This document shows, in pieces, positions 1 to 12,248 of a stretch of DNA of 12,248 nucleotides. The stretch lies in contig DASRFL010000008.1 of the NCBI GenBank assembly GCA_035651555.1, positions 1-12,248 on the forward strand. Reading direction: 5' to 3'. Below the pieces are notes generated by a model that saw nothing but the letters and a program-made list of their open reading frames with translations, did no database searches and had not been told where the DNA came from. The stretch is from Terriglobales bacterium (GTDB lineage: Bacteria > Acidobacteriota > Terriglobia > Terriglobales > Acidobacteriaceae). The translations under genes and the position numbers were made by a program. Position 1 is the first letter of the stretch, and every line of letters starts with the position of its first letter.

Positions 1-135
1 TCCTGTTTCCGGACTCTTTACGACCAGCGTGTCGCCCCAACGGTGAGTAATAATGCCATTAACTTGGCTCTGGGAAAGCGCGCAAACCGACGCAAATAGA
101 AACATCAGAATCGCCGCAACGGCTCTCCTGTGCAT
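1..135 (-). CDS. Partial CDS (5' end only; the rest lies beyond the window start): N-terminus of an exported protein
   Basis: The reverse complement of 1-135 starts with ATG (133-135). It reads MHRRAVAAILMFLFASVCALSQSQVNGIITHRWGDTLVVKSPETG with no stop before the window edge. A basic N-terminus, hydrophobic core and small-residue site give a signal-peptide pattern. It is absent from the ORF track only because it is under 60 aa. Confidence 0.4.
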   Translation of the reverse strand, partial: MHRRAVAAILMFLFASVCALSQSQVNGIITHRWGDTLVVKSPETG

Positions 136-321
136 AACAACTACATTCATCACGCTCGACGAAATAAACGCATTTGTCTAAGTCAGCTCTAACAACAGTT
201 TTTGGGTAGCAATTGTGGCCATACATCGGCGAGCCAGAAAAATGCCCCGCCTCCTGCCAAGAGACGGAGCGAGGTAAAAGGCTTTACAGCATACGTGATG
301 GTGGAGGGGACGCTCCTCTAG

Positions 322-333
322 TTGCAATTGCAA
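322..333. promoter_or_regulatory. Perfect 12-bp palindrome TTGCAATTGCAA in the divergent intergenic region (candidate operator)
   Basis: Read directly: 322-333 is its own reverse complement. It lies between the divergent genes that start at 135 (minus) and 645 (plus). No binding protein can be assigned. Confidence 0.3.
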
Positions 334-418
334 GTTTTGACAGTTTGCACAACAAGTCATGTTCGGTAGCGTAACGGGGATTCGGTAACCTTTGAACCCA
401 AGGTGCGGATTGGACTGC

Positions 419-480
419 GGGGTGCGGACTTTGGCTTGTCATTTTCTCCGACGCTCCGCACCCCTCAGTCATGGACTGAG
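419..480 (+). other. Two abutting stem-loops in the long leader/intergenic region
   Basis: GGGGTGCGGA (419-428) pairs with TCCGCACCCC (455-464), a 10-bp stem with a 26-nt loop. It is followed directly by CTCAGTC (464-470), ATG, GACTGAG (474-480), a 7-bp stem with a 3-nt loop. GGTGCGGA is also repeated directly at 402-409 and 421-428. No T-tract follows, so this is not a classic terminator. Confidence 0.35.
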
Positions 481-578
481 CACGTGAAGGAAAGAGTAGC
501 CGCGAAAGTGCATCTACATGTTCTCAGCCTACTGTATGTGCTGGCGCACACATTGCGTTGGCACGGTTACCTGACACT

Positions 579-607
579 TTGACTCAAATTGCGACACAAC
601 GTAATTC
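579..607 (+). promoter_or_regulatory. Candidate sigma70-type promoter for the 645-1424 gene
   Basis: TTGACT (579-584), a 17-nt spacer, then TAATTC (602-607), about 38 nt upstream of the ATG at 645. The -10 element is imperfect. Confidence 0.3.
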
Positions 608-644
608 GACCGGTGCCCGCAAGTTCAACCAAGGAGTAAGCACA

Positions 645-1424
645 ATGTACTCAAGAAACGAAAACCTACAAACGTATTTGATACTGAGCGTCGGGACCGT
701 GCTCCTTTCCTTCACTCTGAGCACGTTTGCCCAGGTGAAGACAGAGACATCTACAACAAGCGGCTCCCCCACTCAGCAGGTCACTGTCGAACGTGGTGAA
801 GTCCTCCACGCTTCCGGTAATGACCTTATTATCAGAATGGAAGATGGCACGATCCGCGATTTCCCCCATGTATCCAACAACGCCCGGGTCACGGTTGATG
901 GCAAGGAAATGGGAATCCATGACTTGAAGCCGGGTATGAGGCTTGAGAAAACAACTATCATGACGACGACTCCGCAGATGGTCACTACAGTGCAAACTGT
1001 TACAGGAAAAGTGTGGCAGGTACATCCACCGAACACGGTGATTCTCACTTTGGCAGACGGTACAAATCAGCAATTCAAGATCCCGAAAGATCAGAAGTTC
1101 ATGGTTGACGGTCAGCAGAAGGACGCATGGGGATTGAAGAAAGGGATGAACGTATCGGCCACGAAGATCGTGGAGGAGCCCGTAACCCAGGTCGAAAGTC
1201 GAAGTCAGGTGAGCGGCTCTATGCCACCACCACCGCCTGCACCACCGGCAGATGCACCAATTTTGGTGGCAGTCATTATGCCGAGCCCTACTCCAGCGCC
1301 TCAGGCTACTCCGGCGGAGCTACCCAAAACTGGAAGCTTCTTGCCATTGGTTGGCATGCTAGGCGGTATTGCGGTGCTCATCTCGATCACTCTAAGGGCA
1401 ATTCGCCATGCACTAATGGGCTAA
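645..1424 (+). CDS. Secreted surface protein: signal peptide, two tandem ~58-aa beta-type repeats, Pro-rich linker, LPXTG-type (LPKTG) sorting signal
   Basis: ATG at 645 is preceded by AAGGAG (631-636); the ORF-track TTG at 558 has no such site. N-terminus: MYSRNENLQTYLILSVGTVLLSFTLSTFA|QV. Repeats lie at about nt 783-959 and 996-1169 and share the pattern TV..G.V....DGT..F..VDG....LK.GM...T.I. C-terminus: PPPPPAPP...LPKTG (1320-1334), then SFLPLVGMLGGIAVLISITL, then RAIRH. Confidence 0.8.
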   Translation: MYSRNENLQTYLILSVGTVLLSFTLSTFAQVKTETSTTSGSPTQQVTVERGEVLHASGNDLIIRMEDGTIRDFPHVSNNARVTVDGKEMGIHDLKPGMRLEKTTIMTTTPQMVTTVQTVTGKVWQVHPPNTVILTLADGTNQQFKIPKDQKFMVDGQQKDAWGLKKGMNVSATKIVEEPVTQVESRSQVSGSMPPPPPAPPADAPILVAVIMPSPTPAPQATPAELPKTGSFLPLVGMLGGIAVLISITLRAIRHALMG

Positions 1425-1560
1425 TAAGTTGCTTTTAGGTATCGAGCACGGGCACCCTACTGCTGTGTGCCCCGGAGGTCCTTTATCAGCAATTCGACGG
1501 TAAATATTCCATCTTTCTGAGTATGGTCGAACCCAGTCGTTCCATGATCGTTCTGCCGGG

Positions 1561-2700
1561 ATGCCTTTGTTCCGCGCAAGCTCATTAGCATCTCTTAGTG
1601 GATTCTTAATGCGCCCCGAGAATGATGCCGAATACATGCAGCGTGGACTTGAGCTGGCCATCCACATTGGCTTGCTCATTCTCTTGATCGGCGCTTGTAT
1701 CGTGATTCTGCGACCCTTCATACATCTAATACTGTGGGGAATCATCATTGCCATCGCTTTGTATCCAGGCTTTAAAAAGCTGCAGCGACTATTCGGCGGC
1801 CGAGATGGACTAACAGCTGTTGTATGCACCGTTCTAATGTTGGTGGTATTGATTGTTCCGGTCGTCTTGCTCACCGGGACAGTTGTTCAAGGGATCCAGA
1901 CGTTGGCGAGGCATCTCAAGGAAGGCACACTGGCTATCCCGCCGCCGCCTACAAATATCGAAAATTGGTTTTTGGTAGGGCCCTCCCTGAATAAGATGTG
2001 GAGTGCTGCTGCTACCAACCTTAGCGCAGCGCTAGCACCGTTGGCTCCGCAGATGAAAGCTGCAGTTCCTGTGCTCGTTTCCACCTCTGCTGGAATCGGT
2101 CTCACCGTTTTGGAATTTGCGCTCTCGATTTTGGTGGCGGGAGTTCTATTAGCTAACGCACAAAGCGGCGCTGCCACATCTCGCTCCATAGCAGAACGCC
2201 TATTTGGTGACCGGGCAGCCGAGTTTGAGACGCTAGCCGGGGCCACGATCCGGAGCGTCACGACAGGCATTCTAGGTGTCGCACTGATTCAATCGATTTT
2301 CGCAACACTTGGCTTCTTAATCATGGGGCTACCGGGCGCAGGCCTGTGGGGCCTTATCTTTCTGTTTGCCGCTGTACTTCAGGTGGGAATTGTCGTACTT
2401 ATTCCGGCTGCGATTTACGCGTTTGCGATCGCGAGCACAAGCAAGGCGGTGATGTTTCTGATTTGGTGCGCCATAGTTGCATTGATGGACAATGTACTGA
2501 AGCCGCTGCTTCTGGGGCGCGGTGTCGCTGTCCCCATCGCGGTGATCTTCTTAGGTGCGATCGGGGGATTTGTGGCAATGGGGATCATCGGCCTGTTCCT
2601 CGGCGCAGTCATCGTTTCGGTAGGTTACAAGTTATTCCTCGCTTGGCTGCACAGAGCAGGTCAAGACAAAGGAATGCAGCTCATGCGCAAGACAATCTGA
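1561..2700 (+). CDS. AI-2E family transporter (PerM/YhhT/TqsA-like, UPF0118) integral membrane protein
   Basis: Multi-TM protein. Its C-terminal half matches the family pattern I recognise: GLPGAGLWGLIF...LIPAAIYAF...DNVLKPLLLGRGVAVPIAVIFLGAIGGFVAMGIIGLFLGAVI. The start is uncertain; ATG 1561, 1609 and 1636 all lack a clear SD. Confidence 0.85.
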   Translation: MPLFRASSLASLSGFLMRPENDAEYMQRGLELAIHIGLLILLIGACIVILRPFIHLILWGIIIAIALYPGFKKLQRLFGGRDGLTAVVCTVLMLVVLIVPVVLLTGTVVQGIQTLARHLKEGTLAIPPPPTNIENWFLVGPSLNKMWSAAATNLSAALAPLAPQMKAAVPVLVSTSAGIGLTVLEFALSILVAGVLLANAQSGAATSRSIAERLFGDRAAEFETLAGATIRSVTTGILGVALIQSIFATLGFLIMGLPGAGLWGLIFLFAAVLQVGIVVLIPAAIYAFAIASTSKAVMFLIWCAIVALMDNVLKPLLLGRGVAVPIAVIFLGAIGGFVAMGIIGLFLGAVIVSVGYKLFLAWLHRAGQDKGMQLMRKTI

Positions 2701-2743
2701 AAGTCGGCCGACAATTACGAAGGCGATCCGCTGCTGGCCCGGT

Positions 2744-2767
2744 CGGCACTGTTCACCGCACTGTTAG
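2744..2767. repeat. Tandem 12-bp imperfect repeat (CGGCACTGTTCA / CCGCACTGTTAG; core GCACTGTT x2) just outside the cas1 stop
   Basis: Read directly: GCACTGTT occurs at 2746-2753 and 2758-2765, 9/12 identity between units. It lies 11 bp from the cas1 stop codon (2778-2780), inside the 77-bp gap to the transporter gene. Confidence 0.4.
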
Positions 2768-2777
2768 CGGAGGCAGC

Positions 2778-4313
2778 CTAATTTTTTAACACTCCCGCAG
2801 CTTCAGCTAGCACTTGCCAATGTCGAGGATGCGGAAGACGTTTGCCTGACCGAATACCGCTTGCATAAGGGAGTGAAACACCGATTGCAGCTGCAATTGT
2901 TGGAGCGGCAAGCTTCGCAAGCTGGGGCAAAATCCTTTCGCTATAGGTTTCCTTGTTCAGCCAAACAGGTTGTGAAGCTGCTGACCAGTTGCGTTTTGCC
3001 TCCTCGTGTTTTCGCAGGCATTCAGCGCGGGTCCTTTGCGCATCTGAACTCTGCGCTGCTACGCGTCCAACAGCCGCCGCCTTGATGAGGTTTGCCCGCG
3101 ATATCGGTATGGCACAATTAGCACAATTCCTTCGTCCGCGCACGATTGGCGTCCCGCATCCTTCACAGATGCTCTCCGGGCGGGGAGGATTCACTGCAAT
3201 CGCCGTACGAGCGACGCCCCTGGCGAGTCGTTTGTGCTCTTGCGTGAGTCGCGTGGCGTAAACAGTCCGGTAATTGGGCGTGGAAATTCCCGAAGCGAAT
3301 TTGCGCGCTACCCACTCCGCAATCGCGGCAACGGCACGTGCGCATGCAGGTGCAGTTTCAGACAAACGAACGGCGAACGATCCTATCAAGCGGCAGTTTC
3401 CATTGCGCTCTTCGAAAAACCAATCTCGCTTGAACGCCCCATGGAGAATCCAAGCAAGCAGATACGCATCTATTTTTGGACGGATGGCCTCGATTAGATC
3501 GAAGACTAGACTGTCCCTGATGGGTGAATCAACGTGCAAAACTCCGAGTCCCGGATCCATCCCTAGGGTGGTGATGGCAGCGCGCGTCGCTGACTCGCCA
3601 ACCGCGTACAGGTAATTCAAAATGGCGTTCCCTGGATTGCTAGCCAAACGTGGTGAGCCGGTCAGAGGTGATATACGGCTGCCGAACGTCCGCCAATGTT
3701 GGGGAACACGCCTAAGATCGCTCTTTGGGAAATTGATGCTTAAGTTAGCCCAAAGCGACCAGTAAAGTCGAGCGGCCTGAGATTCGAGCAAGCGGATTTC
3801 TTCGGCGCTGTTAGCCGTCCCAAGTTTTTCCCTAAACTCAATGATTATTTGTGCAGCTGCTGGGTTAAGCAACGTTTCGCGTGCGAGCTGCGCTTGACCA
3901 TTTAGCTTTTGTGCAATCAATTCGCGCGCGATCTCAAGGGCGACACCGGATTGTATTGCGAGTGCTTGGGCCCTACGCAATCGTGCATCGGATGGATACA
4001 CCGGGCCTGTGACAAAAAGTACTTTTCCGTTGCGCTCAAGTACGGAGACTGAAACGTCCTGGTCAGAGAGCCAGCGCAGCGCTGCCAGGGAGATGAACCC
4101 GTCAGCACCAATGATGACAAGTCTCTTCAAGCCGTGATTGACGCGCGGCAAGCGAAATGAACGGCGATCTATGCCGATGCCGTCCTCTAGTACCAAGTGC
4201 CCACCATCAACGTTCACTCTTATACCGTACCCGTACAGCGTGACAACACCGCCCCTTGGCACAAGTGAATTGAGGGATTGTGGCGGTTCAGATAAGTTTC
4301 TGATAGCCGTCAT
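2778..4313 (-). CDS. cas1: Cas1-family integrase (casposase-like) with C-terminal Zn-ribbon and HTH extension
   Basis: Residue numbering follows the ORF track. N-terminal beta domain: VVTLYGYGIRVNVDGGHLVLEDG...LKRLVIIGADGFISLAALRWLSDQDVSVSVLERNGKVLFV. Catalytic domain: ESQAARLYW (E205, nt 3783-3785), NAILNYLYA, and GMDPGLGVLHVDSPIRDSLVFDLIEAIRP (H288 nt 3534-3536, D300 nt 3498-3500, E303). This is the canonical Cas1 signature. CEGC...CANC lies at nt 3114-3167. The HTH-like tail IAAAIGVSLPYASGIRSGKRLPHPRHW lies at about nt 2808-2912. The preferred start is ATG 4313, with AGGAGG at 4325-4330; the ORF-track TTG at 4397 has no usable SD. Confidence 0.9.
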   Translation of the reverse strand: MTAIRNLSEPPQSLNSLVPRGGVVTLYGYGIRVNVDGGHLVLEDGIGIDRRSFRLPRVNHGLKRLVIIGADGFISLAALRWLSDQDVSVSVLERNGKVLFVTGPVYPSDARLRRAQALAIQSGVALEIARELIAQKLNGQAQLARETLLNPAAAQIIIEFREKLGTANSAEEIRLLESQAARLYWSLWANLSINFPKSDLRRVPQHWRTFGSRISPLTGSPRLASNPGNAILNYLYAVGESATRAAITTLGMDPGLGVLHVDSPIRDSLVFDLIEAIRPKIDAYLLAWILHGAFKRDWFFEERNGNCRLIGSFAVRLSETAPACARAVAAIAEWVARKFASGISTPNYRTVYATRLTQEHKRLARGVARTAIAVNPPRPESICEGCGTPIVRGRRNCANCAIPISRANLIKAAAVGRVAAQSSDAQRTRAECLRKHEEAKRNWSAASQPVWLNKETYSERILPQLAKLAAPTIAAAIGVSLPYASGIRSGKRLPHPRHWQVLAEAAGVLKN

Positions 4314-4400
4314 GGGAGCTGATACCTCCTGTGCGGTTAGGGCTTGCCATCTGCTGGTGACAGGGGCAGGCCCACTGTGGTTGAAACTTTTACCCAAACC

Positions 4401-5213
4401 TCACTTGCGCATCGCCTTTTTACGTTTGCGCTGGGGTTTCCCAAAGCGCGATTTATCAAACATTTGGTCAGGTCTTTGTGAACCTACGAGATTTATTGCG
4501 GTGCGAGTGCTTACACCAAAAAGTGCGCCCGAAAGCGCGCGAGAGAGGAACCAGATTTTCTTCAGCTGAGTGGACTTGCGATCAGACTTCGGAAACTTCG
4601 GATTTTTCTTCGCAGAAATGAATTCAGACGCGTATTGTGACAAATAGTTTGGAAGGCCGATTACATTCGATATGGGCCATGCGGGTACTCGTATTTCTTT
4701 TATGACTCCCGGTTCCACTTCGCGCGTCACGACCATAGATGCTTGGGCACAAATCTCCCGTACGCGTTCTGGTGTTTCAGCTTGCATTAATGCGTTGAAT
4801 ACTCCAGGCTCACCGGGGATCTTTAATACGGCTCTGGCTTCTTCTACCGCCTTCTCGCGCATCCACTCCCGAGTTACAAATAATGTTCCTTCTTCAATGT
4901 CGCGAAGGCGCTCTGCTTTCTGCTCTATTGGCAATCGACCAGATCTAATTTCTTCTTCGAGTATTTCGTGATGGCGTGCCTTCTGCTGTCCGTCGAGCTC
5001 AATAGGCATTTTCTCCAGCTCAGCCTCTAGGTCCGCGAACTTTTTCTTATCTAACCACCAGCGTGAGCCTCCCTCAATGAGTCTGCGGAAATCCCAATAG
5101 AACTGGTGCGCCATTGCGTACAGCGATCCGGGCTCGACTTCTCTTGGTCTGCCAGCTGGCATAATTAAAGGGCAAAATCTAGAGCGTATCGTTTGCGTAT
5201 GTGATCTACGCAT
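4401..5213 (-). CDS. Hypothetical protein (~271 aa), co-directional with and immediately upstream of cas1
   Basis: Long ORF with protein-like composition: charged helical stretches such as KKKFADLEAELEKMPIELDGQQKARHHEILEEEIRSGRLP, and a Lys/Arg-rich C-terminal tail FGKPQRKRKKAMRK. No family recognised. The start is ambiguous (ATG 5213 or 5162, or TTG 5279) and none has a good SD. Confidence 0.55.
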   Translation of the reverse strand: MRRSHTQTIRSRFCPLIMPAGRPREVEPGSLYAMAHQFYWDFRRLIEGGSRWWLDKKKFADLEAELEKMPIELDGQQKARHHEILEEEIRSGRLPIEQKAERLRDIEEGTLFVTREWMREKAVEEARAVLKIPGEPGVFNALMQAETPERVREICAQASMVVTREVEPGVIKEIRVPAWPISNVIGLPNYLSQYASEFISAKKNPKFPKSDRKSTQLKKIWFLSRALSGALFGVSTRTAINLVGSQRPDQMFDKSRFGKPQRKRKKAMRK

Positions 5214-5280
5214 AGTATACACGGGGTAATATGCACTTGCGAGAGCTGCAATGCAAGGGCAAGAAATGAGGTGTATCAAA
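5214..5280. promoter_or_regulatory. Divergent control region between the minus-strand (unknown + cas1) and plus-strand (HTH...polB) gene sets
   Basis: A 67-bp gap between divergent start codons. It is AT-rich, with TATACT/GTATAC and TAATAT (5227-5232) boxes. An adjacent inverted repeat, TGCGTA (5194-5199) N7 TACGCA (5207-5212), overlaps the 5213 ATG. Promoters are inferred from the geometry only. Confidence 0.35.
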
Positions 5281-5526
5281 ATGCGACGTGATGAAACGAT
5301 ACTCGCTGTAGGAATAGTCGAGGCCGCCCGAAGGTTGGGCCTCTCGCCGCGTACAGTCGCGACCCTTGTCGCTCAGAGAGAGTTGGGGAGCCGCAGGGTT
5401 GGTCGTCGTCGCGTCATACCCGTCTCAGCACTGGAGGATTTCTTGCGCGGTGATCACCTTACCGATGTTCGAACCAAGACTTCGGGGAATAACCCCAATT
5501 CGAAAGGAGCAACAGTATGTCGTTAA
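5281..5526 (+). CDS. Excisionase/MerR-like helix-turn-helix DNA-binding protein (HTH_17-type)
   Basis: VEAARRLGLSPRTVATLVAQRELGSRRVGRRRVIPVSALEDFL matches the excisionase-family HTH pattern (EaA..LgvS.rTv..l...GeL...rvGrr..Ip...L..fl). ATG at 5281 is preceded by GAGGTG (5267-5272). Confidence 0.8.
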   Translation: MRRDETILAVGIVEAARRLGLSPRTVATLVAQRELGSRRVGRRRVIPVSALEDFLRGDHLTDVRTKTSGNNPNSKGATVCR

Positions 5527-5861
5527 GAACGATGCTAAACAGCCGTAATACAGGCCAATCCGGGGCTCTGCTAAAAGGTTCCGACGTCCCTCACGGAGTT
5601 AAGTCAATAACCATTGAAGTAGCGGGCGTACGCGAACCACCTGAAGGGTTCAGCGCCGTCCTCATACTGGAGTTGAAGAAGCCGATCTACGGCAAGTCAG
5701 CTTGGGCCGTTAATAAAACAAACGTCAAGGCGCTCGTGCAGCTGTTCGGCGATGACGAGCACAAACTGGTGGGCAAAAAGATCAAGCTGGAAGTCATCTC
5801 TGTTCGTAATCCACAAACCGGCGAGATCGTGCCCAGCTTGGCGGTGAGCCCAAAGCAGTAA
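5517..5861 (+). CDS. Hypothetical protein, 114 aa
   Basis: ATG at 5517 with AAGGAG (5504-5509) 7 nt upstream. It overlaps the preceding stop by 10 nt, which suggests translational coupling. The composition is plausibly coding. No family recognised. Confidence 0.65.
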   Translation: MSLRTMLNSRNTGQSGALLKGSDVPHGVKSITIEVAGVREPPEGFSAVLILELKKPIYGKSAWAVNKTNVKALVQLFGDDEHKLVGKKIKLEVISVRNPQTGEIVPSLAVSPKQ

Positions 5862-5933
5862 TTGCAGTTGCTTTTGCACGTAACGAATCGAGTTTCCCTC
5901 GACTACGGAGGGAGCTCGGTTCGCGAGGTGCCA

Positions 5934-6479
5934 ATGCCTCGAAAGAAAGCCAAGTCGAAAAGAACGCGTTCGGAAAAGACGAGGCACAAGTCTCCTCCGG
6001 CTCGGTCGAGCAACAGCTTCCGGCAAGATTCAACCGGAGCCAAGGCGTTTGCCGTGTTAGCTCGCTCCCGGCGTACTGGTGAGTCGCCTGAAGCTGTTAG
6101 TCGCCAGTTTGGGACCTATTTCGCCGTTGTTCGCCGTCATCTTCCAGGTCATTTTCGTAAGGTGCGTGGAAGGTGGGTCCCGACAAAATCTGATCGATCG
6201 CCGCGAGGCAAACAGCTCCTCACGGAAGACGGTTACGAAAGGATCGTGGTTCGCGGTTCTAAGAAAGCCGCCGAGCTTAACCGATACAACCAGGTGGTGG
6301 CTCGTTTCATTCGCGGTAAAGATAAAGATCCGTCAGCACTCGCAGAGTTCGAGCGGAAACGCATAGCAGGTCATCGTTACCTCACCGATCCAGACAAGGT
6401 TTTCAGGTTGGCCGATGCAGGAATCATCAAGACCGATGAACTCGGGTCAGATCAGGTTTCGCGCGGAGGCAGGAGGTGA
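5934..6479 (+). CDS. Hypothetical highly basic protein (~181 aa)
   Basis: ATG at 5934 with GAGGTG (5925-5930). N-terminus: MPRKKAKSKRTRSEKTRHKSPPARS. An alternative TTG at 5862 abuts the upstream stop. The gene ends in a GTGA overlap with the next ORF. Confidence 0.6.
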   Translation: MPRKKAKSKRTRSEKTRHKSPPARSSNSFRQDSTGAKAFAVLARSRRTGESPEAVSRQFGTYFAVVRRHLPGHFRKVRGRWVPTKSDRSPRGKQLLTEDGYERIVVRGSKKAAELNRYNQVVARFIRGKDKDPSALAEFERKRIAGHRYLTDPDKVFRLADAGIIKTDELGSDQVSRGGRR

Positions 6480-6838
6480 AGCCTGCTCGACGAAAGAACA
6501 AGCGACTTGAAAGGTATTTGGAACGCGGAATCAAACCGCCTGACCTTCAATCGTTGGTCCTGGACGACGACCCGCTGTCCGGCCTGCAAGAAGATCACGT
6601 TGCAAGCCGTCAGCACGATTCCAAGCTCGTTGCTCCGGTCACACCGAAAGCTCATCAGCGGCTTGAGAGAAATCGAAATGCCGCTGGTGTCAGCAGGAAA
6701 TATGAGAAGAACCTGGTCAAGCGAACCATACAACGCCTTAGGTCGAGCGCCGTCTTTGACGAGCTCCAAGCCGAAGCAAAGTGGCGATGGGCTGAAGACC
6801 TCGAACTTAGTATCAAGAAAAACGCTGAGGAGCGCTGA
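6476..6838 (+). CDS. Hypothetical basic/charged protein, 120 aa
   Basis: GTG start in a 4-nt GTGA overlap with the upstream stop. Its TGA shares one nucleotide with the polB ATG (cTGATG at 6836-6840). The composition is helical and charged. The two other ORFs over the same DNA (6507-6887 plus, 6452-6880 minus) look like out-of-frame artefacts. There is no internal Met, so the start is uncertain. Confidence 0.5.
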   Translation: MKPARRKNKRLERYLERGIKPPDLQSLVLDDDPLSGLQEDHVASRQHDSKLVAPVTPKAHQRLERNRNAAGVSRKYEKNLVKRTIQRLRSSAVFDELQAEAKWRWAEDLELSIKKNAEER

Positions 6839-9753
6839 TGAATCCGCAAGTAAAAGATCTTGCTCTTCGTGTTCACACAAAGGTTGAAGGCGCTAAGCGC
6901 GCCAAATCACGATCACGTAAGCTATCCGGCCCGCAATCGCTGAAATGGGCTAAACACGCGCTGGTAATCGATTGTGAAACGACCACGGAAGAACTCGGCC
7001 AAAAATTAAACTTCGGCTTCTATCGGAAGTGCAAAGAAATCAATAACGAATTCAAAACGATAGAAGAAGGCATCATCTTTGCCGACGATCTCGTGAAACG
7101 CCTGGGCCACACCGCCCTAGCGCTATTGCAACACTTCGCGCGTTCACAGCCCGACACGATTTGCGGTCGCTTTGCCAAGATGAAGATCTACTCACGGTCT
7201 AATTTCGTTAAGAAAGTGTTCTTCCCGTGGGCAATTCTGAAGAAAGCTGCAATCGTCGGCGCAAACCTGGCATTCGATCTTAGTGTTCTTTCGGTCGCCT
7301 ATCACGAGCACAAAACGGAAAACGGCTTCTCCTCTGAACTAGCGGCGCGTTACAAGCGACGCGAACACAAGCGCTATCCACGGCTACGAACCGTTCCAAA
7401 GAATTCGCGAACCGCGTTCTTCGACTTGTCGGGAGGAACGGGCCCATACAAATGTGGTCGCAAGAATCGCGGAAGATTCCTAGATGTTCTGACGTTTGCG
7501 TTCGCAATGCGAAACAAGCATCTCAAGCTGAAAACGGCTTGCGGAATAGATGGTTGGAACGTTGCTGGCAAGCTGGATCACCAACCAACAGGGAAAGTGA
7601 CGTTACAAGAAATCGAATATTGCCGGGAAGACGTTGCGGCAACGCTCCGGCTACTGAACGCACAACGCAAAGAATACGACAGCTTCCCGATTGATCTGAA
7701 ACCGGAACGCGCGCTCAGCCCCGCATCGATCGCGAAGAGCTTCCTCGAAAGTATGGGAATTCAAAAACCGGCAGAGAAATATAAATTGCCGGATTGGATT
7801 CACGGCGTCGCCATGCAAAGCTACTACGGCGGCAGAAGTGAAGTTCGTATTCGCGATCTCGAACTACCGGTGATTTTGGTCGACTATACGAGCAATTATC
7901 CAACCGCTGCAGTGCTATTGAACGTATGGAAGCTAATGATCGCTGCGAAGATTCGCATTAAAGACGTTACCGAAGAGGCGCGCAGCACCCTGGGCTTGGT
8001 AAATCGCGATCGTTTGTTGAACCCACAATTCTGGGCTACGCTCGATTTCATCGCGCTAGTTGTGCCAGATGGTCACCTTTGCCCCGTACGTACTGAATAT
8101 GACGATGTCGACGGTGAATCAACGAATATTGGCTGCAATCCGCTGTTTTCCAGGACGCCAATCTGGCTAACCGGCCCGGACCTGGCAAACGCCGTTCTCC
8201 ATGGCCATCGAATAAAGATCCTTCGGGCTATCCGGCTCGTTCCTGTGGGCATTCAAAAAGGGCTCCAGCCGGTAAGAATTGGCGATCGCGTCATCGATCC
8301 CCGACGAGATAATCCGTACACCGCTTGGGTTGAGCTAAAAGAAGTCTCGTCTGGGACAATCAAACAATTTATTAAGGTGTTGCTGAACTCGGGAGTATAT
8401 GGATTGGCCGTCGAACTGAACTTGAAGCGCTACAGCAAGAACCGACCTAAGACGATCCGCATCTGGGCGGGCGACAAAGAGCTTCCTCCCACTAAGGACA
8501 CCAAAATCGAAATTCCCGGCCAGTGGTATTTCCCCTGGATTGCGACCCTCATCACGGGTGGAGGACGTTTACTGCTAGGCATGTTGGAGAAGGAACTCGC
8601 AACACTCCAGGGTAGTTACATGATGACAGACACGGACAGCATGGCAATCATCGCGAATGAAGAAGGTGGATTTATTCCGTGCCCTGGTGGACCGCATAAA
8701 ATGTCAGATGGGAAAGACGCGGTAAAAGCGCTTTCGCGCGCGGAAGTCGAGAAAATCACCGACCGAATTCAAAAACTCTCACCGTATAGCGCAAATATCA
8801 GACTATTGAAAATTGACAAAGCAAATTTAGATCGCAATGGTAAGCCGCACCAGCTCTTTGGAATCGGCTATTCGGCGAAAAGATACTGCCTGCGCACGGA
8901 AAAAGAGATCATCAAGCCCAGCGAGCACGGCCTTGGACCTTATTTCGTTCCAGCATATAAAGATGATGAACGCTTCTGGACGCCCGACGATTGCTTGAAA
9001 GGGGACGCGTATCTTCGCTGGGTGAAAGAACTATGGGAATTCATTCTTGGAATCAGAAAAGAATTGCCGAAATGGGCTAATTACTACTCGATGCGCAAAT
9101 ACGCGGTCACCACGCCAAATATTCTTACAAAATTGCGCCGTTTGAATCGTGACGCAGCAAAACCATACTCGTTTTGTATTGGTCCGATTTCATCTTTTGG
9201 GCATGATACAAAGGTTACCCCGTACTGCGAAAACCCCGAATTGTGGAAGGATCGCGAGTACATTTCGCTGAAAACCGGTCAGACAACGCGTTTGAGCAGC
9301 ATTGAAAATGATTGCGAAGGTGAAGAGAGCTTCGTTATTGACGATGCGCCCGAAAAACTTAAGAAGGTCATCGAGGATTATTCGAAATCAATCGAGCATA
9401 AAAGCCTCGCGCCGGATGGATCGAAGTGCGCGAGCGAAACGTGCGGCTTGCTGCGTAGACGCGCAATCAGAGCGAGTGGAATATTTAACTGGATCGGAAA
9501 AGAAGTAGATCGTGGAACTTCAACTGATCCGGAATTTTATTCAAATGAGACGCTCACTAAGTACGCACAAAATGGTTATCAATTTCCCGAAGCTCTAAAT
9601 AAATTTACAAACAGCGAGCTTGCAACGCGCACGGGATTATCCGAGAAAACAATTCGCGCGGCGAGAAGAAACAAGACGCGAACTCAGGCGACAACTGCTG
9701 CGAGATTATCGTGGTGCGCGCGTATGGTGCAAGAACACAGATCACAAGTGTGA
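6838..9753 (+). CDS. polB: Family-B DNA polymerase with 3'-5' exonuclease domain (971 aa)
   Basis: Motifs read in the translation:
- ExoI: VIDCETT (D45 nt 6970-6972, E47)
- ExoII: GANLAFDL (N143 nt 7264, D147 nt 7276)
- ExoIII: YCRED (Y261 nt 7618, D265 nt 7630)
- Motif A: VDYTSNYPT (D349 nt 7882)
- Motif B: KVLLNSGVYG (K513 nt 8374)
- Motif C: MTDTDS (D598 nt 8629, D600 nt 8635)
- KxY: AKRYC (K681 nt 8878)
An HTH-like C-terminal tail, ELATRTGLSEKTIRAARRNK, lies at about nt 9610-9672. Confidence 0.92.
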   Translation: MNPQVKDLALRVHTKVEGAKRAKSRSRKLSGPQSLKWAKHALVIDCETTTEELGQKLNFGFYRKCKEINNEFKTIEEGIIFADDLVKRLGHTALALLQHFARSQPDTICGRFAKMKIYSRSNFVKKVFFPWAILKKAAIVGANLAFDLSVLSVAYHEHKTENGFSSELAARYKRREHKRYPRLRTVPKNSRTAFFDLSGGTGPYKCGRKNRGRFLDVLTFAFAMRNKHLKLKTACGIDGWNVAGKLDHQPTGKVTLQEIEYCREDVAATLRLLNAQRKEYDSFPIDLKPERALSPASIAKSFLESMGIQKPAEKYKLPDWIHGVAMQSYYGGRSEVRIRDLELPVILVDYTSNYPTAAVLLNVWKLMIAAKIRIKDVTEEARSTLGLVNRDRLLNPQFWATLDFIALVVPDGHLCPVRTEYDDVDGESTNIGCNPLFSRTPIWLTGPDLANAVLHGHRIKILRAIRLVPVGIQKGLQPVRIGDRVIDPRRDNPYTAWVELKEVSSGTIKQFIKVLLNSGVYGLAVELNLKRYSKNRPKTIRIWAGDKELPPTKDTKIEIPGQWYFPWIATLITGGGRLLLGMLEKELATLQGSYMMTDTDSMAIIANEEGGFIPCPGGPHKMSDGKDAVKALSRAEVEKITDRIQKLSPYSANIRLLKIDKANLDRNGKPHQLFGIGYSAKRYCLRTEKEIIKPSEHGLGPYFVPAYKDDERFWTPDDCLKGDAYLRWVKELWEFILGIRKELPKWANYYSMRKYAVTTPNILTKLRRLNRDAAKPYSFCIGPISSFGHDTKVTPYCENPELWKDREYISLKTGQTTRLSSIENDCEGEESFVIDDAPEKLKKVIEDYSKSIEHKSLAPDGSKCASETCGLLRRRAIRASGIFNWIGKEVDRGTSTDPEFYSNETLTKYAQNGYQFPEALNKFTNSELATRTGLSEKTIRAARRNKTRTQATTAARLSWCARMVQEHRSQV

Positions 9754-9843
9754 AGAAGGCGATTTAGCATAGTGAAGTTTAGATACCACTAGAATACAGA
9801 CCAGTAACGCGAACTATCACGAGCGAAGAAGGAAAGGACGACT

Positions 9844-10048
9844 TTGCGACAACCGGAATTAACAAGTGTGTGCACGATGCCAGAGATCAAAAACTGTATG
9901 AGCTTTGCCGTAGATCAGCAATGAGAAAGATTCAGACAAGCTGATTGCATTGGTCCAAAAGCTAACGAAACTTCTCGCTGAAGAGCAGGACGAAATCAAG
10001 GCCAAAATCAAGGCGAACGCCGGGAAACGCGTGTCGATTATTGAGTAG
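9844..10048 (+). pseudogene. Small ORF split by a +1 frame change (possible frameshifted small-protein gene or assembly error)
   Basis: GGAAAGGA (9831-9838) then TTG at 9844 (in-frame ATG at 9877) gives ...CTMPEIKNCMSFAVDQQ, then TGA (9922-9924). The +1 frame continues (9914-10048) as ISNEKDSDKLIALVQKLTKLLAEEQDEIKAKIKANAGKRVSIIE*, but it has no start codon of its own. Confidence 0.3.
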
Positions 10049-10121
10049 GCTTGCGTAAGTGGAAGGCAAAATGAAGAGGAAATCTACCTAGAATTTCCCG
10101 AGGCCCCGCAGAGGTATAGGT

Positions 10122-10150
10122 GTCTCTGTTGAGACGAAGGCATGGCCTTC
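10122..10150 (-). terminator. Two short hairpins just downstream of the LuxR-type regulator stop (weak terminator candidate)
   Basis: GTCTC (10122-10126) TGTT GAGAC (10131-10135), and GAAGGC (10136-10141) ATG GCCTTC (10145-10150). They begin 5 nt after the stop codon at 10155-10157. The stems are short and no U-tract follows. Confidence 0.25.
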
Positions 10151-10154
10151 TCAG

Positions 10155-10874
10155 TCACAGGCCAGTGGCTACATCCTCTCGACCATTCGCCGAACCTGTG
10201 AAGCGCGACACGCCTGGGAGCGGCACGTGGATGATCTCGTTTGTCACTGCGTACAGCACCAAACTGGCAAGGGAGTGAAGTTTGAGCTTACGCATGATAT
10301 TGCTGCGATGGGTTTCGGCCGTTTTTAATGAGATCCCTAAGAGACGGGCCACTTCCCTGGAACTGTTGCCCTCGCCTACGAGCTGAATGACCTCGCGCTC
10401 CCGAAGCGACAACTGGGATAGCTTGATCACGGGAGGAACAGCTTGGTCGCGCGACACGTAACCGTTAAGGATCAAATCGGACACACCAGCGCTGAACATC
10501 GACCTGCCCCCTTGAAGAGCTTCTACTGCTGTCACAAGGTCCTGAGTGGTGTCCGACTTAAAAAACCACCCCCGGACCCCGATTTCCAGACATTCGCGGA
10601 TCACTTGCTCGGAGGCCACATCGGTCACGACCAGTATTCTCAGGTTCGGATCGTGGTTCAGAATCTGTCGCGCCGCCTCCACGCCATTCAGCAGGGGCAT
10701 GCAAATATCCAAAATGACCAGGTCTGGCTTCAACTGCATGCATTTCTCGACGGCATCCCGCCCATCCGCAGACTCACCGCAGAGTTCCCAATCTGGGTGG
10801 GAGGCTAAGAGTGAGCCCAGGCCCAGGCGGAACACCGGATGATCGTCCACCACCAGAATTCGAAAGGTACTCAT
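10155..10874 (-). CDS. Two-component response regulator, NarL/FixJ (LuxR-type HTH) family
   Basis: REC domain: ILVVDDHPVFRLGL...KPDLVILDICMPLLNG. LuxR HTH: LSLREREVIQLVGEGNSSREVARLLGISLKTAETHRSNIMRKLKLHSLASLVLYAV. ATG at 10874 with GAGGT 6 nt upstream; the ORF-track TTG at 10889 is rejected. Confidence 0.9.
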   Translation of the reverse strand: MSTFRILVVDDHPVFRLGLGSLLASHPDWELCGESADGRDAVEKCMQLKPDLVILDICMPLLNGVEAARQILNHDPNLRILVVTDVASEQVIRECLEIGVRGWFFKSDTTQDLVTAVEALQGGRSMFSAGVSDLILNGYVSRDQAVPPVIKLSQLSLREREVIQLVGEGNSSREVARLLGISLKTAETHRSNIMRKLKLHSLASLVLYAVTNEIIHVPLPGVSRFTGSANGREDVATGL

Positions 10875-10928
10875 GGCAGGACCTCGCAAGCGCCATAACG
10901 AAATTTATCAAGGTGTCAGCGTGCCGTC

Positions 10929-10944
10929 TGATCAGAATTGCTCA
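10929..10944. promoter_or_regulatory. Palindrome-like operator TGATCAGAATTGCTCA upstream of the LuxR-type regulator gene
   Basis: Inverted half-sites TGATCA and TGCTCA with a 4-bp spacer, 14/16 identical to the site at 11821-11836. It lies 55 nt upstream of the ATG at 10874. A GATAAAT box (minus-strand reading of 10903-10909) lies 20 nt downstream of the site. Confidence 0.4.
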
Positions 10945-10995
10945 ACTGGTGCTTGCGGTGCCGCGCCCTGCGAAGCATCCGTTGAGCGCCGCCTG

Positions 10996-11020
10996 AGCGT
11001 GGCACAGAAGGGCCACTGCT
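10996..11020 (-). terminator. Bulged hairpin downstream of the CheY-like regulator gene (weak terminator candidate)
   Basis: AGCGTGGC (10996-11003), loop ACAGAAGG, then GCCAC-T-GCT (11012-11020): an 8-bp stem with a 1-nt bulge. It lies 30 nt after the stop at 11050. No U-tract follows. Confidence 0.25.
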
Positions 11021-11049
11021 TGCGAGGCTGTGCAATATTTGGGCTGTGC

Positions 11050-11703
11050 CTACGCGACAGATTCCTGCGGAGATTTCAGAAAAGCTGCTTTCCATGCCGC
11101 CCGTTTTTCAGGCGAGTTCACGGAGCGGGAAAAATCAATGATGTAGGTGACTTCGTGAGGACAGTAGATGCAGGCAGTCTTCAGAACCTCGCCGGCTGGT
11201 TCATGATCAACCGTGAACGGGAACGATCTCAGGCATTGCGTACAGGTCAGAAGGACGAAAGGGTTACCATTCTGATCCTTACCATTTCGCGGAATCCACA
11301 CCGGAGCATTCTCTCCCTTGTGTTGGACAGGACCCGTTCGGATGAGGTCAGCAACAATCTCTAAGAGCTTCGCGGCACTTTCCTCGCCTTTAGCGTAGAA
11401 GGCGTCAGCTATGACTCCTCCAGGCACGGCGCCGGAGGTATACGCACCGCTAGCCGCCACCACCATAACGTTTGGGAACCTGCGTCTCACTACGGACAGC
11501 AACTCGAATCCCGACATTTGGGGCATATTAAGATCGGAGACCACCAAGTCCGGGAGCTTCTGTTGCATTTGCAAAAGCGCGTCAAACCCATCATTTGCGG
11601 TGGTGACCTCGTAGCCTTCCTTCTCGAGCACTCTAGAGAATGTCAAACGTACCGCCTCGTCATCTTCGACCACAAGTATGCGTGTTTTGGATTTGCTACA
11701 CAT
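11050..11703 (-). CDS. CheY-like response regulator receiver domain fused to a C-terminal CxxC...CxxC domain
   Basis: REC domain: RILVVEDDEAVRLTF...LPDLVVSDLNMPQMSGFELL. C-terminal ~80 aa: LLTCTQCLRSFPFTVDHEPAGEVLKTACIYCPHEVTYIIDF, which is Zn-ribbon-like. ATG at 11703 with GAGGTG 4 nt upstream. Confidence 0.85.
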   Translation of the reverse strand: MCSKSKTRILVVEDDEAVRLTFSRVLEKEGYEVTTANDGFDALLQMQQKLPDLVVSDLNMPQMSGFELLSVVRRRFPNVMVVAASGAYTSGAVPGGVIADAFYAKGEESAAKLLEIVADLIRTGPVQHKGENAPVWIPRNGKDQNGNPFVLLTCTQCLRSFPFTVDHEPAGEVLKTACIYCPHEVTYIIDFSRSVNSPEKRAAWKAAFLKSPQESVA

Positions 11704-11820
11704 CGGGCACCTCGCGCATTGAATGTGCCAGAGGGAAAGTCATTTATCGTGCTTTAAGTCTCTCATCGGAATTCCTGAGTGTCTGGCCAAAAGTGTACAC
11801 CTGAGCTGCACCTTTGTTGG

Positions 11821-11836
11821 TGAGCAGAATTGCTCA
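11821..11836. promoter_or_regulatory. Palindromic operator TGAGCAGAATTGCTCA between the Crp/Fnr gene and the CheY-like regulator gene
   Basis: Perfect 6-bp inverted arms, TGAGCA N4 TGCTCA. A third half-site TGAGCA lies at 11843-11848. The site is 118 nt upstream of the ATG at 11703. A GATAAAT box (minus-strand reading of 11742-11748) lies between the site and the gene. Confidence 0.4.
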
Positions 11837-11870
11837 GTACATTGAGCAGGGCAGGACCGCGCCGTGGAAG

Positions 11871-12248
11871 TTAATCGTGCAGAACTACGTTGAGCAGTGA
11901 ACTGTGGACTTGCAAACCACCGTTGTAATGAATGAAACCTAATTTCCGGAATCGGTTCATGAAGAAGCTGACTCGCGACCGCGTGGTACCGACCATCTCA
12001 GCCAGGGTCTCCTGGCTAATCTTGGGAATCACGGTCTCAGGAGTACCGTCTTTGCCAAAATGAGCAAGTAAAAGCAGAATGCGGGCCAGTCTTTTTTCGC
12101 TGGAATTAAAAAGTTGGTCGACCAGATCTTCTTCGTAGCGGATATTTCGAGCCAGCAAATACGCCACGAACAGATCCGAAAGCGAGTGTTCGCGGTGAAG
12201 CGCATCCATCATTGCCTTCTTCTCTACCCGCAGAAGCTCGCAGTTGGT
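11871..12248 (-). CDS. Crp/Fnr-family transcriptional regulator, C-terminal part (the 5' end lies beyond the window)
   Basis: The frame stays open to the window edge (TNCELLRVEKKAMMDAL...). The tail is typical of Crp/Fnr proteins: RLARILLLLAHFGKDG...ISQETLAEMVGTTRSRVSFFMNRFRKLGFI (HTH). Confidence 0.85.
   Translation of the reverse strand, partial: TNCELLRVEKKAMMDALHREHSLSDLFVAYLLARNIRYEEDLVDQLFNSSEKRLARILLLLAHFGKDGTPETVIPKISQETLAEMVGTTRSRVSFFMNRFRKLGFIHYNGGLQVHSSLLNVVLHD

Follow-up and report, generated by a model that had tools for sequence, protein, structure and literature searches.

What does a cas1 gene do beside a DNA polymerase gene in an acidobacterial genome when no CRISPR array accompanies it? 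The question is raised by a stretch of 12,248 bp, here called the window, from a member of the Terriglobales (assembly GCA_035651555.1, contig DASRFL010000008.1, positions 1 to 12,248), in which cas1 and a gene for a family-B DNA polymerase (PolB) are divergently transcribed. An earlier note on this DNA, made from the letters alone, had proposed a bacterial casposon-type element, that is, a self-synthesizing element with a Cas1-type transposase (casposase). Our analysis supports that proposal: very probably, positions 2778-9753 of the window are the complete and intact gene core of a casposon that belongs to a large family resident in Acidobacteriota. The support comes from the linkage of the two genes in 71 of 79 related Cas1 loci, from terminal inverted repeats (TIRs) and 14-bp target-site duplications (TSDs) in 36 of the 79, and from the closest solved structures, which are those of the Methanosarcina mazei casposase and the phi29 DNA polymerase.

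The Cas1-PolB core and its relatives

The cas1 open reading frame (ORF) matches the profiles PF01867 (8e-37) and TIGR00287 (9e-31, above the cutoff of that model), and the CRISPR subtype-specific Cas1 models of NCBIfam reach at best 75-88 bits against cutoffs of 385-560. Because the 20 homologues aligned with it all begin at its M29, the gene probably starts there (coordinate 4313), giving a casposase of 511 aa. Throughout this 21-sequence alignment, E205, H288, D300, and E303 are invariant, in the same pattern as the Escherichia coli Cas1 active site E141/H208/D218/D221 (PMC4046053). Equally invariant are a Zn ribbon of the form CxxC...CxxC (C411/C414/C425/C428) and a C-terminal tail resembling a helix-turn-helix (HTH), which together form a region of about 200 aa. 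A profile search of the PDB places the M. mazei casposase 6OPM at the top (4e-29), just ahead of Archaeoglobus fulgidus Cas1, and in a Foldseek search with an AlphaFold2 model of Cas1 (pLDDT 74), 6OPM takes ranks 1-3 at 25% identity.

PolB barely passes the cutoff of its Pfam family (PF03175, 2e-6) and has no match in the PDB by sequence. Across 33 PolB homologues, with identity down to 37%, the exonuclease motifs ExoI (D45/E47), ExoII (F146/D147), and ExoIII (Y261/D265) are invariant, as are the polymerase motifs A (D349/S352/Y354/P355), B (K513/N517/Y521/G522), and C (D598-T599-D600, in the context M-T-D-T-D-S) and the KxY motif (K681-R682-Y683). An AlphaFold2 model of the protein (pLDDT 86, pTM 0.85) has phi29 DNA polymerase as its top five PDB matches in a fold search, and residues 905-945 give a weak match to HTH_36. 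The polymerases of pipolins (piPolBs) have KTRG (KH-X8-KTRG) in place of KxY (PMC5695915); since the canonical KxY is kept here, PolB is not a piPolB. Motifs and predicted fold together identify it as phi29-like, of the protein-primed and not the pipolin type. These profile matches and motif alignments confirm what the earlier note had described, a Cas1 homolog with the full catalytic signature and a 971-aa PolB. Its excisionase-type HTH gene is likewise present (PF12728, TIGR01764), and its count of four ORFs that it could not place holds for 4401-5279 on the minus strand and 5517-5861, 5862-6479, and 6476-6838 on the plus strand.

Our main survey covered one genome per GTDB species and gave 359 Cas1 loci, with detailed counts made on the best-scoring 79; L-numbers (L001 and so on) denote the related loci that were compared with the window. 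The best 80 of the 359 loci are all from Acidobacteriota, and several genomes hold at least two copies. Protein searches returned thousands of Cas1 homologues of about 510 aa at 55-66% identity and hundreds of PolB homologues of about 980 aa, which come from metagenome-assembled genomes (MAGs) of Terriglobales or Acidobacteria where the sources name a host. A profile search with Cas1 at E < 1e-30 yielded 1,759 clusters (50% identity), and each of the best 150 spans Cas1, Zn ribbon, and HTH in full. Where a PolB homologue accompanies Cas1, it usually lies 2-5 kb upstream and is divergent, with two loci co-directional. Clustering the ORFs of the delimited elements, those with both ends located, places PolB and Cas1 in all 35 and the 205-aa family, the third most conserved gene, in 31. 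Closest among them by gene content is L069 (15,262 bp, its TIR and TSD perfect), which has a PolB of 45% identity and the same order of 292-aa ORF, HTH gene, 205-aa ORF, and 120-aa ORF.

The accessory genes are conserved to varying degrees. The 292-aa ORF has no match in Pfam, NCBIfam, PADLOC, or PHROG; its homologues hold the same position in five delimited elements, and elsewhere this slot upstream of cas1 is filled by other families, unrelated or distant (f4, f7, f8, and f21). The HTH_17 gene recurs at its position in L002/L069, L010, L020, and L106, and the 114-aa ORF has counterparts of 69-76% identity in the corresponding place in L056 and L074. The 205-aa protein matches PHROG 29425 weakly at its C-terminus, and its alignment contains an HTH-like region and no diagnostic feature; we regard it as a candidate TIR-binding or terminal protein. 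Directly 5' of polB, the relatives carry a small gene with the motif CxxC..(E/D)HH..CxNCH, which we call HNH-type from this motif and from the family profile, whose best PDB match is the HNH domain of McrA (6GHC, E 0.009). Only H41 and H60 are invariant in the alignment of the family, and Pfam searches with single representatives of the HNH-like, 205-aa, and slot genes returned nothing for these core genes. The 120-aa ORF of the window is homologous to the HNH-type gene and has lost all four cysteines, as have its counterparts in L001 and L069, and by this alignment the HNH is degenerate in the sub-lineage of the window. The earlier note, which reported no HNH nuclease, was thus right in that the Zn-binding cysteines are gone and wrong in that an ORF homologous to HNH-type genes is there. 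Taken as a family, the predicted proteins include the classical casposon core of Cas1, PolB, HNH, and HTH proteins (PMC4046053).

Termini, target sites, and a proposed mechanism

The ends of related elements were located by scanning for direct repeats of 14 bp, one mismatch being allowed, immediately outside ends that are complementary at 16 or more of 24 positions. Most of the 36 loci found in this way match at 24/24 and 14/14, and the scan gave none among 79 shuffled loci and none among seven unrelated control loci. In L050, the first delimited case, a perfect 36-bp inverted repeat has a 14-bp direct repeat outside it. Inverted copies of its terminal sequence also enclose the module in L031, L056, L079, and L082, and in L023 they form the outer pair; each of these pairs has a perfect 14-bp duplication of its own. 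A 36-nt sequence, GGGGTGAGAAC..., was considered as a generic genomic repeat of the repetitive extragenic palindromic type and rejected as such, because its inverted copies enclose the module with perfect 14-bp TSDs.

Delimited relatives measure 7,638-18,616 bp (median 14,367 bp). Their TIRs span 21-300 nt and begin 5'-GGG(G)(T/A), which gives the transferred strands the 3' ends ...TATCCC or ...ACCCC. In M. mazei, the ends of the casposon are 5'-TATATCCC, and the casposase gives 14-bp TSDs (PMC6977970); as judged from these sequences, the likeness of the two in both end sequence and TSD length is striking.

With their perfect TIRs and TSDs, many copies look recently mobile. On CAWDNS010000002.1 (about 538-571 kb; L056:892-21497 and L004:6220-17315), three elements of 13.1, 9.1, and 11.1 kb stand head to tail beside a single promoter, each separated from the next by the 14-mer CTCCTGGCATTGAC. 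Many elements abut the TIR of another, different element, and miniature derivatives of 223 bp consist of TIRs only. TIRs and TSDs, together with multiple copies, tandem arrays, and miniature derivatives, are hallmarks of transposons. Decayed copies of PolB without cas1 also occur (L083:10001-13425, L084, and L085), with truncated polymerases of 861 and 754 aa.

Several individual arrangements are worth recording. The middle element of the CAWDNS010000002.1 tandem has PolB and no Cas1. One decayed copy adjoins IS66-type genes and a solitary TIR of the family, and another adjoins an 87-aa phage-integrase fragment. L023:4055-18931 is nested: TSD1 (GTCAAACCCGGGGA) is followed by a 223-bp mini-element, a 14-mer X (CTTTCTGGTTTGAC), a 14.4-kb element with other TIRs (GGGGATAGCTATACA...), X again, an identical 223-bp mini-element, and TSD1 again. 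The mini-element has apparently been duplicated on either side of the large element, and simple successive insertions do not account for this. In L015, a 132-bp inverted repeat resembled a TIR overlapping cas1 and was rejected as a terminus, because no TSD accompanies it and it duplicates, in inverted form, a 3' fragment of cas1. The inverted copies (5012-5143 and 11509-11640) are 94% identical, one of them some 300 bp past polB, and the cas1 3' end is found a third time, in part, 1 kb beyond cas1 (12536-12589). This repeat is probably the remnant of another copy.

The insertion sites share a GTCAA motif, and when they are oriented by it, their flank contains a sigma70-type promoter that reads away from the element. 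The TSD ends in TTG[AT]C at 34 of 36 sites, and the pattern TTG[AT]C, 16-18 nt, TAnnnT is found at 31 of the 36, against a background of 2.7%. The 14-bp TSD is made up of the 9 bp upstream of the -35 hexamer and the first five bases of that hexamer (TTGAC), so that insertion leaves one copy connected to the -10 box and the promoter is preserved. Downstream of the targeted promoters lie housekeeping genes, namely valS (in at least seven MAGs), rpmH/rnpA, thrS, lysS, and nuoB, as well as genes for a conserved secreted protein and a rhomboid-like protein. Rfam gave nothing at threshold in the window or in six related loci, which indicates that the targeted promoters drive no known RNA. Since insertions at one and the same promoter differ in the nine variable bases of the TSD, it is probably the promoter itself that determines specificity, a reading for which the CRISPR leader or tRNA segment that directs known casposases provides the analogy (PMC9939771, PMC6977970).

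We propose that the protein combining Cas1, Zn ribbon, and HTH acts as the transposase, probably as a tetramer, and would join ...CCC-3'-OH ends to target strands 14 bp apart, a step modeled on the M. mazei casposase (PMC6977970, PMC9939771); repair would then duplicate the 14 bp. The C-terminal domains, the small HTH proteins, or both might read the promoter as the leader is read in CRISPR adaptation, with the Zn ribbon and the C-terminal HTH together positioning the casposase on it. In the M. mazei casposase, the C-terminal HTH is essential (PMC6977970, PMC9939771). Repeated insertion at one site leads to tandem arrays that share a 14-mer. Going by its type, the phi29-like, strand-displacing PolB would replicate the element, probably with protein priming from the G-run termini. 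The terminal G-runs would allow the sliding-back step of protein-primed initiation, which is known from phi29- and PRD1-type systems. The 205-aa protein, encoded upstream of polB, may serve as the terminal or end-binding protein.

Borders, cargo, and alternative explanations

The earlier note had set the borders of the element at 2701 and 10154 and had taken the genes on both flanks (Table 1) to be ordinary cellular ones. Among 33 delimited relatives of the divergent type, the distance from the cas1 stop to the terminus is 1,170-8,751 bp, with a median of 5,232 bp and no value within 100 bp, and for the polB stop it is 81-5,276 bp, with a median of 2,632 bp. These distances make the proposed borders unlikely, the left one, 77 bp past the cas1 stop, being unprecedented among delimited relatives, and they leave room for cargo where cellular flanks had been assumed. 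Beyond the core, the window extends 2,777 bp on the cas1 side and 2,495 bp on the polB side, and with flanks this short relative to those distances, absent termini are expected even for an intact element. In addition, the AI-2E and response regulator genes read toward the core, whereas targeted promoters read away from it, which again points to true ends at a greater distance. Over the AI-2E gene, the metagenome contig L099 is similar (84% aa and 81% nt identity) exactly up to window position 2701 and then diverges, which fits either a boundary between cargo and module or a junction between host and element. L099, the best flank relative, has nothing in common with the right flank, and L090-L093 share only a loose neighborhood. 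The element, or what remains of it, probably extends beyond 2701-10154, and by comparison with its relatives the true ends most likely lie outside that interval and, at least on the cas1 side, outside the window. The 288-aa protein and the AI-2E gene (558-2700) are possible cargo downstream of cas1, as the regulators at 10155-12212 are downstream of polB. A loss of the ends from this copy seems rather unlikely.

Table 1. Genes of the 12,248-bp window, in order of position
Feature	Position	Strand	Evidence or remark
288-aa secreted or anchored protein, C-terminal LPKTG-hydrophobic-basic tail	558-1424	+	
AI-2E transporter	1561-2700	+	PF01594 7e-29
Casposase: Cas1 domain, C-terminal Zn ribbon, HTH-like tail	ORF 2778-4397, probable gene 2778-4313	-	
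292-aa accessory ORF	4401-5279	-	upstream of and co-directional with cas1
HTH_17/excisionase-family DNA-binding protein, gene 1 of the polB-side operon	5251-5526	+	PF12728 8e-11, TIGR01764 5e-9
114-aa ORF	5517-5861	+	no family match
205-aa core protein, N-terminal half HTH-like	5862-6479	+	no Pfam match
120-aa HNH-derived ORF directly 5' of polB	6476-6838	+	alignment with HNH-type genes of relatives
Family-B DNA polymerase, 971 aa, predicted protein-primed (phi29-like) type, C-terminal HTH	6838-9753	+	PF03175 2e-6
LuxR-type response regulator	10155-10889	-	Pfam match
Second response regulator	11050-11703	-	Pfam match
Crp-type HTH protein, cut by the window end	11871-12212	-	Pfam match

Two features of the flanks stand apart from these questions. 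The 288-aa protein has a proline-rich linker and ends in LPKTGS, a hydrophobic stretch, and basic residues, a sortase-type (LPxTG-like) sorting signal that is unusual for an acidobacterium; a homologue of 50% identity lies near an AI-2E gene in L093. The 400-bp gap 3' of polB contains a 12-nt tandem motif (AAATCAAGGC) and a short open frame (9940-10047, ending ..LVQKLTKLLAEEQDEIKAKIKANAGKRVSIIE and stop) that has no ATG or GTG, spans about 33 codons from a TTG, and may be a gene remnant.

Outside the core, the gene content of the family is almost wholly element-specific, with cargo on both sides that starts a few tens of bases past the cas1 stop. Gene calls around relatives give a consistent picture. 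The cargo of relatives includes proteins with the TIR protein domain, a deaminase, a reverse transcriptase, RHS/YD toxins, serine recombinase genes, ParB-like genes, and insertion sequence (IS) elements. Genes like those flanking the core of the window are among it: the delimited element L005 contains a Crp homologue with 73% aa identity to that of the window, and genes combining a response regulator with GGDEF are cargo in L009 and L058. Two of the closest relatives of the window also have defense-like neighbors. Those of L001 (13002-18578) encode an RNase T-like exonuclease, a reverse transcriptase, an ORC/Cdc6-like ATPase, Vsr, and a DNA methylase, together with HxsD/radical-SAM genes; those of L086 (5384-9231) encode a D12 methylase as well as an HATPase_c_3 protein and an AAA_15/21 ATPase.

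At two of about 95 loci, what follows cas1 is a CRISPR array, which begins 21-24 nt past the casposase stop. In L039 (6869-7829; JBEKQY010000380.1, Ca. Korobacteraceae), 15 copies of a 36-nt repeat (GTTGTGGATGGCCGAGAATCACCGCTCAGGTACACT) with unique spacers of 26-29 nt start 24 nt past the stop of a full-length casposase gene (5333-6835), with PolB upstream as usual. In L105 (11537-12674; GCA_009712145.1, VFSW01000398.1), there are 16 copies of a 37-nt repeat (CTTTCAATCCTGCCCCGCACGAAGCGGGGATTGCAAC), the degenerate ones nearest cas1, with spacers of 35-38 nt, one of them duplicated. The L105 casposase is 78% identical to that of L039, and the polB-side terminus of the L105 element, at 3438, is the canonical junction, TTGAC directly followed by GGGATAGGAG.... 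The repeats of the two arrays are unrelated, both arrays run into contig ends, and their spacers have no significant match among the related loci compared. Arrays are absent from the closest relatives of the two loci, including L103, L106, L107, and L108. We favor the simplest reading, in which the arrays are cargo in the usual slot, probably as part of a CRISPR-Cas locus cut by the contig end. It is very unlikely that the family is a living bridge between casposons and CRISPR, in which the casposase feeds or founds arrays without Cas2; if true, this would be the first natural intermediate of the scenario that derives CRISPR adaptation from casposons.

Could the cas1 gene of the window be a CRISPR adaptation gene after all, or part of a new defense system, with an array or effector just outside the window and PolB as a partner in immunity? 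The two arrays just past the Cas1 stop, the label "CRISPR-associated endonuclease Cas1" in the source annotations, and the frequent position of relatives among defense genes would suit such an explanation, which we nevertheless consider highly improbable. The arrays are rare and have unrelated repeats, the nearest relatives have none, and in the window the slot after cas1 is taken by the AI-2E gene. No CRISPR-like array was found in the 12,248 bp, and PADLOC reported Cas1 as its sole match there, with no cas2, cas4, or effector; repeat scans and PADLOC thus agree with the earlier note on these absences. All CRISPR subtype models score far under their cutoffs, the family bears the transposon hallmarks described above, and its defense genes vary from element to element, as cargo does. 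Scarcely credible is a pipolin-like or other integrase-driven island in which PolB is the replicase and Cas1 is incidental or not a transposase. In its favor are the membership of PolB in the pPolB/piPolB supergroup (PF03175), the excisionase-type HTH gene, the defense genes near relatives, and the phage-integrase fragment that one degraded copy adjoins. Against this, the polymerase has the canonical KxY and not the KTRG of piPolBs, Pfam, NCBIfam, PADLOC, and PHROG scans found no tyrosine or serine recombinase domain in the window core, and Cas1 is present in every delimited element. The bounds of the elements are TIRs with 14-bp TSDs and not att direct repeats, which in pipolins usually lie at tRNA genes; the 12,248-bp window contains no tRNA gene.

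A more serious rival concerns this copy and not the family. The core could be an immobilized or domesticated remnant, derived from a casposon that has lost its termini and now a fixed module that possibly serves the host, with the AI-2E gene and the regulators as true flanks. The window contains no terminus, its cas1 stop lies 77 bp from a convergent, full-length AI-2E gene, and L099 diverges right after the stop codon of that gene; decayed copies exist in the family, and the HNH-like ORF of the window is without its cysteines. Yet the seven core ORFs are all intact and no catalytic residue has been lost, the same cysteine-less HNH variant is found in L069 with its perfect TIR and TSD, and the space beyond the core (2.8 and 2.5 kb) is below or near the medians of relatives (5.2 and 2.6 kb). 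We therefore view a remnant as possible and rather doubtful.

Several observations weigh against a mobile casposon at this locus or leave the case less complete. As the earlier note had said, the 12,248-bp window has no TIR, although TIRs do exist in relatives, and it has no TSD or promoter junction either. The scans comprised generic repeat finding, blastn-short of the outer flanks, a TSD-anchored scan, and junction motifs, together with blastn-short of all 72 known TIR ends and two TIR hidden Markov models, and nothing rose above chance. L001, the closest relative by PolB (78% identity), has no recognizable TIR pair within 22.9 kb, and a comparison of the AI-2E protein with metagenome contigs found no empty site. 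The casposase structure outscores those of CRISPR Cas1 by a small margin (104.8 versus 100.6 bits, and 1.5e-16 versus 3.5e-15 in Foldseek), the relatives are all MAGs or metagenome contigs, and for protein priming and the roles of the small proteins we offer inference only. An intact casposon core remains our preferred reading of 2778-9753.

Comparison with known systems

The accepted account of how CRISPR adaptation arose gives casposons a central place, and those known are few and mostly archaeal. The window family is bacterial and very large: species-representative genomes hold 359 loci, and its protein clusters number 1,759. At the level of the family, it has the structure that defines a casposon, and it fits none of the described casposon families, family 3 having been compared by description only. 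Our literature searches, on casposons or casposases in Acidobacteria and on casposon papers of 2023-2026, were incomplete in coverage and found no such family described, in keeping with the suggestion of the earlier note that the lineage may be undescribed. Nor did we find the combination of a phi29-like polymerase with an HTH/Zn-ribbon casposase described in the searchable literature.

Family 2, which includes the elements of M. mazei (MetMaz) and Aciduliprofundum boonei (AciBoo-C1), resembles the window family in its Cas1-type casposase with a C-terminal HTH, in its core of Cas1, PolB, HNH, and HTH proteins (PMC4046053), and in the 14-bp TSD and ...TATCCC-3' ends of the M. mazei element (PMC6977970). 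In both, insertion is site-specific and, for the window family probably, guided by sequence beside the duplicated segment, and tandem arrays share TSDs (PMC9939771). However, family 2 has archaeal hosts and targets the 3' end of tRNA genes and not the -35 box of promoters. Its PolB belongs to an RNA-primed-like group with the motif CDTDS (PMC7544198), unlike the phi29-like polymerase with TDTDS and KxY seen here, and the window casposase has an additional Zn ribbon and only about 25% identity to 6OPM. Family 4 is archaeal, like family 2, and has a different PolB group from that of the window family (PMC7544198, PMC9939771).

Family 3, described from only four elements (AceAut-C1, NitAL212-C1, HenMar-C1, and StrAlb-C1), shares bacterial hosts and HNH and HTH accessory genes with the window family (PMC4046053). 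The Cas1 of AceAut-C1 also has a C-terminal Zn-binding domain and HTH, the architecture of the window casposase (PMC4046053), so the extra Zn ribbon is not the departure from casposons that the earlier note had taken it for. As described, the PolB of family 3 differs in being akin to RNA-primed archaeal PolBs and nested in the family 2 clade. Family 1, from Nitrosopumilus and other Thaumarchaeota, has a PolB of the protein-primed type and a conserved small upstream gene, possibly for a terminal protein (PMC4046053). It differs in being archaeal, in inserting at the 3' end of the aEF-2 gene (PMC9939771), and in its compact Cas1 with neither HTH nor Zn domain (PMC8464041).

Pipolins, too, are self-synthesizing elements of bacteria whose PolB falls in the pPolB/piPolB supergroup, and they are described as carriers of exchangeable defense genes (PMC11551731). 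The elements of the window family, for their part, ferry defense and toxin genes in soil Acidobacteria. Tyrosine recombinases are the enzymes used by pipolins, whose piPolB has KTRG for KxY (PMC5695915) and which are flanked by direct repeats (PMC11551731), whereas the window family has KxY, a Cas1 integrase, and TIRs with TSDs.

CRISPR Cas1-Cas2 and the window casposase have in common the Cas1 fold and catalytic residues, together with staggered attacks that duplicate the target beside a leader-like guide. They differ in that the window has neither Cas2 nor an array, in the length of the duplication, 14 bp as against a repeat of 25-50 bp (PMC6977970), and in the integrated unit, which here is an element of 7-19 kb. 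The two CRISPR arrays beside a casposase make the question of the passage from casposon to CRISPR directly testable. The unusual targeting of the promoter -35 TTGAC, with the promoter rebuilt upon insertion, would offer a natural system for how a Cas1 integrase reads the equivalent of a CRISPR leader.

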